Positions 61,055 to 61,484 of a DNA stretch of 64,000 nucleotides are shown here, one piece after another; the stretch's first letter is position 1, and each line of letters begins with the position of its first letter. The translations under genes were made by a program, and so were the position numbers. The notes beneath the pieces were generated by a model. It ran no database searches and was not told the origin of the DNA. It saw only the letters and a program-made list of their open reading frames with translations. Source of the DNA: Escherichia phage AV123; sequence record OR352953.1; one strand, 5' to 3'.

Positions 61055-61484
61055 AGATTATTTAAATGGAATCGCTAGAGAAAATTTCTCTTTTCGCTCA
61101 TGGTTTTCTCCTTCAAACTCTAGCGGTTCTTTTTAAGTGATTTTTAGTTTATTGGAGATTCACTGCCTTAGTATGAGCTAAAATCGAGGAGCCATCGAAC
61201 TGTCTGATTAATGATTTGCGAATCATTATAGTTTTAAGACCCCGGCAGTTTTATGGTGTACCTCTTGAATGTGAATGATGACGGGTTTATGGTTATCCTG
61301 GTCGTTAAATATCCAAAAACCTATGTTCCCCTTGATGGCTTGCGCAGGCAATGCCAATAAGTCCTGCATTTTCATTTAAAAGAGAATTTATAATGGAAAA
61401 ATATGAACTTAAGTATGCTAAGCCTCTGGCTTCTGCTGCACGAAAAGCAGTTCGTCACTTTGTGGTAACACTGAAGTAATTTAT
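61055..61484 (+). other. 430-bp structured spacer within tRNA array with 28-codon ORF (61393-61479)
   Basis: long-range pairing CGCTAGAG (61072-61079) / CTCTAGCG (61117-61124) followed by T-run; hairpin TAATGATT-TGCG-AATCATTA; small ORF with AAGAG RBS-like. Confidence 0.3.

Follow-up and report, generated by a model that had tools for sequence, protein, structure and literature searches.

In the tRNA array of Escherichia phage AV123 (OR352953.1), a phi92-like myovirus (Justusliebigvirus, Stephanstirmvirinae), tRNA-Gly and tRNA-Gln are separated by 430 nt without a tRNA, raising the question of what this DNA is and where it came from. The stretch analyzed here, hereafter the window, comprises 64,000 nt of this genome; at its 3′ end, 15 tRNA genes form an array on the + strand. 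The gap (61055–61484) is bordered on the left by tRNA-Gly(UCC) (60980..61054, +; Rfam tRNA model, 55.1 bits) and on the right by tRNA-Gln(UUG) (61485..61559, +; 61.4 bits), both called by ARAGORN, and the two programs bore out that no tRNA lies between them; the biggest open reading frames (ORFs) in the gap encode 42–49 amino acids. The initial annotation, made from the sequence alone, had described a structured spacer with a long-range pairing followed by a T-run, a perfect hairpin, a further stem, and a 28-codon ORF, and had considered that the DNA might specify a small regulatory RNA or a leader peptide or be left over from a mobile element. All of these features are present, at their expected positions or within 1–2 nt of them, and the interpretation is partly supported: the spacer does hold a remnant of acquired DNA, it encodes no leader peptide, and its structures are real and stem from two different elements.

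Most of the spacer (332 of 430 nt) was recently acquired from a T-even phage. Searched alone, 61163–61479 showed 98–99% identity to hundreds of Tequatrovirus genomes (RB27, AR1, RB51, T6, and others), where its counterpart overlaps the 3′ end of rIII, the rIII–30.9 intergenic region, and the start of gene 30.9. BLAST comparison of the whole window with the whole AR1 genome returned only two near-identical segments, in swapped order, with 61145–61401 matching AR1 129428–129172 (98.4%) and 61395–61492 matching AR1 129510–129413 (99.0%). The remaining matches did not exceed 82% identity over at most 150 nt, and no further T-even DNA was found in the 64-kb window by this comparison. A 14-mer shared with the insert at ~63704, within a lipoprotein signal-peptide coding region, was set aside as a chance identity. 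Moreover, the insert had no match in 5,426 complete E. coli genomes, and a host-derived or IS-like element was rejected for this reason. In T-evens rIII is complete (82 codons), whereas the window holds only its last 27 codons, demonstrating that the transfer ran from a T-even to a phi92-like phage.

The order of the insert is a circular permutation of that found in T-even genomes. In the latter, rIII codons 56–82 and the TAA stop are followed by TTTATTGGAGATT, ~232 nt of intergenic DNA, and ATGG, the start of gene 30.9, whereas the window begins with TTTATTGGAGATT and continues with the intergenic region, ATGG joined to AAAAA..., rIII codons 56–82, TAA, and a second TTTATTGGAGATT. Accordingly, the 332-bp insert (61148–61479, equivalently 61161–61492; +) is bounded by two direct copies of this 13-mer. 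The left copy (61148..61160, +), the putative crossover site, ends in 8 nt that form an orphan tRNA-Gln 5′ end, and the right copy (61480..61492, +) spans the 5-nt leader and the opening 8 nt of tRNA-Gln, which is intact, and so extends past the end of the spacer as initially delimited, into the tRNA gene. The copies lie 332 bp apart in all genomes with this insert type and 374 bp apart in phage A150. The 13-mer is single-copy in the insert-free relative PaulScherrer, and it is likewise single-copy, directly after the rIII stop, in RB51, AR1, and T4. Also, phage Tr1 carries the near-identical TTTATTGGAGAAT before its tRNA-Gln, indicating that the 13-mer is native to the recipient.

Both junctions could be placed to the base. 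The intergenic part is identical to AR1 at 247 of 249 positions without gaps, and the rIII part at 97 of 98 positions of the AR1 rIII 3′ end. The internal junction lies within a shared GG, at which the 30.9 start (ATAATGG|CAAAAC) is joined to rIII (CAGG|AAAAAGATG), and the 334-nt T-even source segment minus this 2-nt overlap gives 332, exactly the repeat period. When the AR1 segment was permuted in silico as a circle opened at the 13-mer and compared over 345 positions, it matched phi92, PD06, and SD2 at all 345, muut at 344, arall at 343, and the window at 342. Twelve Justusliebigvirus records contain the contiguous junction, and four A150-type records contain it with 1 nt deleted; as a 72-mer it was contiguous in Justusliebigvirus only, and in IMG/VR only in two phi92-like contigs. 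In T-evens, its two halves are always separate and in the opposite order.

This architecture bears on the suggestion of a mobile-element remnant, which holds insofar as the DNA is acquired and fails insofar as a transposon or an integrase-bearing element was meant. The insert has no terminal inverted repeats, and its flanking repeat pre-exists in the donor beside the same sequence instead of being a target-site duplication, so that a transposon, a miniature inverted-repeat element (MITE), or an IS was rejected. No recombinase is encoded in the insert: its sole ORFs are fragments of at most 49 amino acids, and the T-even intergenic region and the rIII tail together explain all of its content.

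The empty site was recovered among close relatives. When 60900–61600 (701 nt) was searched against 50,697 phage records, the full query was found in 16, and the other listed Justusliebigvirus records matched it in two pieces spanning ~370 bp. About 55 records hold the native part of the spacer (61055–61147), of which ~16 (~30%) have the long form. In PaulScherrer, the Gly–Gln spacer is 99 nt long with one 13-mer copy and aligns with a clean gap of ~332 nt, and the outgroup phAPEC8 has a short, insert-free spacer of 98 nt; FKP3 and Tr1 carry other tRNA genes or tRNA-like sequence upstream of tRNA-Gln, and neither has the insert. The absence of the extra DNA from these relatives and outgroups indicates that the short spacer is ancestral.

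Inserts of the 332-bp type, found in isolates from Europe, Asia, and the USA, have identical junctions and differ from one another by 0–3 substitutions, suggesting that a single capture is the simplest reading. The window shows three derived changes, of which G61173A and G61336T are common to arall and an IMG/VR contig, and G61402T is private. Over the 8-kb upstream flank, the best match was the insert-free EmilieFrey (99.4%), and the next was arall (98.8%), an insert carrier. Given this patchy distribution, it is inferred that the insert spread by homologous recombination among phi92-like phages and/or was lost scarlessly between the 13-bp repeats.

Taken together, it is highly likely that the 332-bp insert was captured from a T-even of the AR1/RB51 allele type via a head-to-tail intermediate and a crossover at the 13-mer, and that it is mostly passenger DNA. 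A permuted insert bounded by duplicated shared sequence points to such an intermediate, whose physical form, like the recombination machinery, is inferred. During co-infection with a T-even of this allele type, the start of 30.9 would have been joined head-to-tail to rIII codon 56 through the 2-nt GG microhomology, yielding an excised circle of 332 bp or, alternatively, a tandem duplication or concatemer. A crossover within the one 13-bp stretch shared with the recipient (the tRNA-Gln leader and the initial 8 nt of the gene) would then have amounted to a Campbell-type integration without an integrase, leaving a duplicated 13-mer, an intact tRNA-Gln, and an in-frame chimeric ORF of 28 codons. 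A single crossover with a circle, two crossovers with a head-to-tail concatemer, and two template switches would be equivalent routes to this product. The 13-mer itself is nothing special but a chance identity: AR1 and the window share 13-mers at 1122 positions, and among the exact matches of the 332-bp unit to the insert-free window, TTTATTGGAGATT ranks second in length. The event is visible because it was harmless, as tRNA-Gln and its leader were regenerated; indeed, tRNA-Gln is undamaged and has the same sequence as in PaulScherrer.

Several points weigh against this scenario. The predicted donor junction (...GAATTTATAATGG|AAAAAGATGAAC...) was found in no T-even record or metagenome contig, and neither a circle nor a tandem donor was observed; in JGI metagenome contigs there was no exact junction match, and the seven matches to a degenerate pattern were chance 24-nt matches. 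The circle junction would be based on only 2 nt of microhomology, and the records of the A150 type are flagged UNVERIFIED. Furthermore, the absence of the insert from EmilieFrey and its presence in arall require extra recombination or loss events. Finally, selection for function is possible given the persistence of the insert with 0–3 substitutions across three regions and its in-frame fusion, which had a chance of 1 in 3.

The possible function of the insert has to be considered in light of its role in the donor. In T4-type phages, the rIII–30.9 intergenic region is ~120–420 nt long and modular, consisting of M1 (~91 nt), an optional middle module of 0, 44–50, or 153 nt at one fixed point, and M3 (~95 nt) together with the 30.9 ribosome-binding site. 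Its counterpart in the window (61161..61396, +) contains M1, M3, and the Shine-Dalgarno sequence and ATG of 30.9. M1 (61181–61271, +) is predicted to fold into a long interrupted helix (61186–89/61261–64, 61191–95/61253–57, and 61197–204/61244–51) bearing the perfect hairpin TAATGATT-TGCG-AATCATTA of the initial annotation (61209–61228, 8/8 complementary). M3 (61275–61396, +) contains the stems TGATGAC/GTCGTTA (61276–83/61301–07), CCC/GGG (61328–38), and GCAGG/CCTGC (61344–48/61363–67), the last of which had also been noted, as well as the 30.9 Shine-Dalgarno sequence AAGAG (61380–84, +), 8 nt upstream of the ATG (61393–95). A CUCUU at the end of M1 is able to pair with this AAGAG.

Comparison among diverged T4-type phages suggests that these modules are a conserved structured RNA element, with good but not conclusive support. 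The nucleotide identity of M1 and M3 is mostly 92–99% (two lower values, 82.5% and 88.7%), against 82–86% for rIII and 67–91% for 30.9. In alignments of 12 and 15 distinct sequences, M1 had 25 pairs (99% paired, five changed on both sides) and M3 had 18 pairs (98.9% paired, three changed on both sides); none of 500 shuffles scored as high for either module, and the paired fraction fell to 25–63% in slid controls. The sequences are few and related, and these counts are thus suggestive and no statistical proof. The T-even-derived 5′ module alone had no unusual stability (z = -0.38). In AR1, M1 and M3 each occur once, and the window holds no extra copies of them.

The structured element is probably the 5′ leader of gene 30.9, and the intergenic region may represent a structured leader or an sRNA in T4 itself. 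No Rfam match was found in the homologous T-even intergenic regions, longer variants included, and our literature search returned no description of the element. A consensus scan for promoters and terminators found none inside the insert, and inspection of the intergenic region by eye gave no convincing T4 early (GTTTAC N17 TAnnnT), MotA-box, or late (TATAAATA) promoter. A minus-strand ORF of 49 amino acids (61226–61375), annotated in AR1 and SD2, was rejected because the optional modules interrupt it in other T-evens. The stems in the insert are thus present because they were carried along with the T-even transfer, and the earlier proposal of a small or structured RNA stands to the extent that the insert hairpins belong to a covarying T-even noncoding element; the first 93 nt of the spacer form a separate, native hairpin. 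That these stems exceed chance follows from compensatory changes in homologues, detected in the native stem, the TAATGATT hairpin, and the GCAGG stem, and not from the window sequence alone.

The 28-codon ORF (61393..61479, +; MEKYELKYAKPLASAARKAVRHFVVTLK followed by a stop) had been proposed to encode a leader peptide. Instead, it is an accidental fusion in which the ATG of 30.9 continues in frame, at GG 61395–96, the head-to-tail junction of the donor segment, into rIII codons 56–82 and the stop. Its residues 2–28 matched positions 60–86 of the 86-position RIII profile (phrog_1457; E = 2.4e-11), which AR1 RIII matches over 1–86, and no Pfam family was matched by the ORF. The RIII portion is identical to residues 56–82 of AR1 RIII except for a D-to-Y change at ORF position 4, caused by G61402T. 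A full-length RIII antiholin (~82 amino acids) was therefore rejected, as only the C-terminal end of the profile is covered. A 42-amino-acid version starting at ATG 61351 was also rejected, given that this ATG is ACG in RB69 and several other T4-type phages. In public records, the chimeric ORF is labeled "rIII lysis inhibition accessory protein" (phi92 gp113) or "lysis inhibition" (SD2, 595–681), and gp113 (2953–3081 of the phi92 locus) is the 42-codon version from the non-conserved upstream ATG. These labels over-interpret a 27-residue fragment and are no evidence for lysis inhibition. T4 RIII, a cytoplasmic antiholin that also binds S1, differs from the product of this ORF, which would comprise only its C-terminal third under the start of gene 30.9. 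RIII has been shown to bind the cytoplasmic domain of holin T (PMC11413866) and ribosomal protein S1 (PMC9409239). The AR1 holin gene t (158546–159202) had no match in the 64-kb window by BLAST against the AR1 genome, so that the RIII fragment has no evident holin T partner there.

Could the insert nevertheless have been captured for a function? It has been considered that T-even RNA and/or the 28-residue RIII peptide, made from the tRNA operon, would interfere with a co-infecting T-even or alter the processing of downstream tRNAs, with factors acting on the rIII–30.9 transcript, holin T, or S1 as conceivable decoy targets. Consistent with this, the insert is part of a transcribed tRNA array and has a sigma70-like promoter upstream, the 30.9 Shine-Dalgarno sequence and ATG are kept with the fusion in frame, the peptide is the conserved C-terminus of a protein with the two binding partners named above, the noncoding modules are strongly constrained in their home genomes, and the insert is geographically widespread with few substitutions. 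However, only ~16 of 55 relatives have it, and its near-identity to T-evens is equally explained by recency and re-conversion. In addition, G61336T in the window breaks the covarying CCC/GGG stem of M3, a second covarying pair does not form in the A150 allele, which also occurs in the T-even ECML-134, and the ORF is frameshifted in the A150 lineage, suggesting that constraint is relaxed in the new host. Functional capture thus appears unlikely, although it retains some weight, and the insert is most likely passenger DNA with little or no role in the phi92-like phage. The more specific proposal that RNA and peptide act as decoys against co-infecting T-evens (through holin T lysis inhibition, the S1–RegB axis, or a factor for the rIII–30.9 leader) seems improbable; if it were true, the 332-bp island of homology would also be a recurrent recombination portal between unrelated phage families.

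The A150 lineage provides further information on the history of the site. A150 (MG065639.1), A145, C3, and A110a are four records labeled "Campylobacter phage" that belong taxonomically to Justusliebigvirus. Over the 8-kb flank searched, they are ~97% identical to E. coli phage AV123, and their host label is doubtful. Their insert is 374 bp long, and its intergenic part, enlarged by a 44-nt module, matches another T-even allele (ECML-134, slur07, VEc74, and teqsoen) with 100% identity. The rIII tail, in contrast, has AR1-type bases at both sites where ECML-134 differs, and a 1-nt deletion destroys the chimeric ORF by frameshift. An ECML-134-type middle combined with an AR1-type tail is what would be expected had a second T-even converted the central part of an insert already in place, and the insert of the A150 lineage would thus have been re-converted after its capture. 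Alternatively, two independent captures (332-bp AR1-type and 374-bp ECML-134-type) would imply a recurrent, mechanistically determined rIII–30.9 circle, in agreement with the 100% identity of each intergenic allele to a different extant T-even allele. This alternative is considered quite doubtful, since both inserts have exactly the same 2-nt junction and 13-bp crossover site and the A150 rIII tail carries the bases that conversion predicts. Under either history, at least two exchanges between the two phage families have occurred at this spot, and the second T-even allele suggests that the patch continues to mediate exchange between them.

The remainder of the spacer, 61055–61147, is native and is present in all phi92-like phages (Justusliebigvirus), including the insert-free relatives. 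Inverted-repeat search revealed a long hairpin (61057..61141, +) with arms at 61057–61080 and 61118–61141 (~23 bp) and a loop of ~37 nt that contains the invariant CTCATGGTTTTCTCCTTC (61097–61114). The long-range pairing noted initially, between CGCTAGAG at 61073 and CTCTAGCG at 61118, and the T-run behind it are parts of this longer structure. The hairpin had a minimum free energy (MFE) z-score of -2.84, with 3 of 200 shuffles folding as well. Across four diverged relatives representing Justusliebigvirus of E. coli and Klebsiella (PaulScherrer and FKP3), Citrobacter phage Tr1, and Phapecoctavirus phAPEC8, six of the 23 predicted pairs showed compensatory changes and the loop was invariant. 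The stem thus covaries across Stephanstirmvirinae according to the aligned sequences, and the hairpin sits 3′ of tRNA-Gly in the whole subfamily. Together with the T-even rIII–30.9 leader, it represents one of two candidate RNAs, both conserved, structured, and noncoding, that are absent from Rfam: a search with 61055–61484 gave no match at E ≤ 10, for this hairpin as for the rest of the spacer. The consensus scan did not call it an intrinsic terminator, defined as a compact G+C-rich hairpin with a 3–8 nt loop and a U-tract directly after it; here the loop is ~37 nt and the T-run is partly paired in the extended stem.

Read as its reverse complement, the native hairpin loop gives exactly a strong ribosome-binding site followed by ATG (GAAGGAGAAAACCATGAG). 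It is complementary at 20 of 20 positions to the initiation region (25110–25129) of a minus-strand gene starting at ~25118 (MSDLFYTGVGSRD...), and, apart from this 20-nt match to a gene start, the element has no extra copies in AR1 or the window. Pairing with the initiation region of the gene at 58872 (58859–58883; MTEKTYGK...) would involve 15 of 17 positions of the core 17-mer and 22 of 25 over a longer stretch. A possibility related to the decoy idea is therefore that the hairpin may be an sRNA derived from the tRNA operon whose CU-rich loop pairs with translation-initiation regions. However, the 17-mer AAGGAGAAAACCATGAG matched more than 120 unrelated IMG/VR contigs as a generic ribosome-binding site plus ATG, making its specificity for sRNA targets doubtful. 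An RNase III processing site or another role are further candidates, alongside an anti-initiation-region sRNA. On the minus strand, the loop would also start a micro-ORF of 8–14 codons, the length of which is not conserved.

These results largely dispose of the idea that all 430 nt form a native locus for a small regulatory RNA or a leader peptide. The stems and an ORF with a Shine-Dalgarno sequence are present, the whole spacer folds better than shuffles (z = -2.55), and the first 93 nt are a native covarying hairpin, but 332 of the 430 nt are T-even DNA absent from most relatives and outgroups, and the ORF is a chimera of gene fragments. As an account of the whole spacer it is highly improbable; it is refuted for 61148–61479 and remains only for 61055–61147. 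A chimeric assembly from lysates contaminated by T4-type phages, which are common in laboratories and sewage and could be suspected behind the four UNVERIFIED records, has next to no probability, given that the same junctions recur in at least 12 records that come from different countries and laboratories, as well as in two IMG/VR contigs, each having private substitutions, and that misassembly would not yield a circular permutation bounded by a clean 13-bp repeat.

Other features of the array were also recorded. A transcript running through the spacer is likely to start at a TG-extended sigma70-like promoter (TTGACA-18-TAGAGT; 60939..60968, +) upstream of tRNA-Gly, which matched the consensus at 10 of 12 positions and is a consensus match only. 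It is one of four strong sigma70-type matches on the + strand (10–11/12, all TG-extended), at 58812–58841, 59479–59507, 59619–59648, and 60939–60968, whose spacing hints that the array may comprise several transcription units instead of one. The near-consensus promoter at 59479–59507 (TTGACA-17-TATAGT) lies just upstream of 59519–59597, which scored 38.6 bits with the Rfam tRNA model (gathering cutoff 29) yet was not called as a tRNA by ARAGORN. A weaker tRNA-like match (22.9 bits, below this cutoff) between tRNA-Met and tRNA-Ile (62056–62116) may be a degenerate tRNA remnant. The Leu–Ser spacing is ~127 nt shorter in phi92 than in the window and in PaulScherrer, so that a further presence/absence polymorphism may exist in the array. 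Finally, the ORF at 63664–63720 begins with MRKHLLALCLVLALMMTGC..., a lipoprotein signal peptide with a lipobox, and may encode an outer-membrane spanin; the phi92 annotation has an Rz-like spanin at the equivalent place, upstream of the gene for the large terminase.

Among known systems, the native hairpin resembles RNAs derived from the spacers of tRNA operons, such as the stable RNAs co-transcribed with the T4 tRNAs and the E. coli 3′ETS sRNA, in lying directly 3′ of a tRNA within a tRNA operon with a conserved structure. It differs in being a putative RNA whose sequence is unrelated to any Rfam family. The insert, for its part, recalls integrative elements that target tRNA genes, as it lies at a tRNA gene and its 13-bp repeat holds the first 8 nt of tRNA-Gln while the tRNA remains intact. 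In those elements the repeat usually covers the 3′ end of the tRNA, whereas here it covers the 5′ end, the inserted DNA measures only 332 bp, and the repeat pre-exists in the donor for unrelated reasons. Similarly, Campbell-type integration by a single crossover would produce the same direct duplication of shared sequence at the flanks and the same permutation relative to the linear source; in the present case, however, it would have proceeded without an integrase or att site, through a 13-bp chance identity that is one of more than 1000 shared 13-mer positions.

The closest parallel is offered by the PeSL mini-circles of T4-type phages. Inverse PCR has revealed circles of ~400–1400 bp that are excised from T4-type genomes, and a role as vectors in horizontal transfer was proposed for them (Arbiol et al. 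2010, PMC2839356). PeSL cassettes are defined by repeated sigma70-like early promoter and stem-loop terminator motifs at their borders. In that system (PMC2839356; Comeau et al. 2014, PMC4122927), segments of a few hundred bp leave plastic regions of T4-type genomes as circles and are proposed to be transferred horizontally without a dedicated recombinase, and the insert has the circularly permuted topology expected from an integrated circle of that size. It differs in its junction (ATGG|AAAAA), which relies on a 2-nt GG between the 30.9 start and rIII codons 55–56 rather than on promoter/stem-loop repeats, in having no promoter- or terminator-like site in 61148–61492 and modules that are single-copy in AR1, and in a recipient from another phage family. 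A paper describing the present transfer was not found in our literature search. So far, the integration of PeSL mini-circles had been hypothesized and not observed, their transfer having been proposed from circles detected by PCR, and a natural product of it had not been seen before. Mosaicism through illegitimate recombination is an accepted model of phage evolution, though footprints that reveal the mechanism are rare. In the phi92-like phages, the donor allele, the empty site, both junctions, and the permuted topology are known to the base, and they point to a sub-kilobase, head-to-tail intermediate of a T4-type phage that would have entered the genome of an unrelated virulent phage by way of a 13-bp identity.

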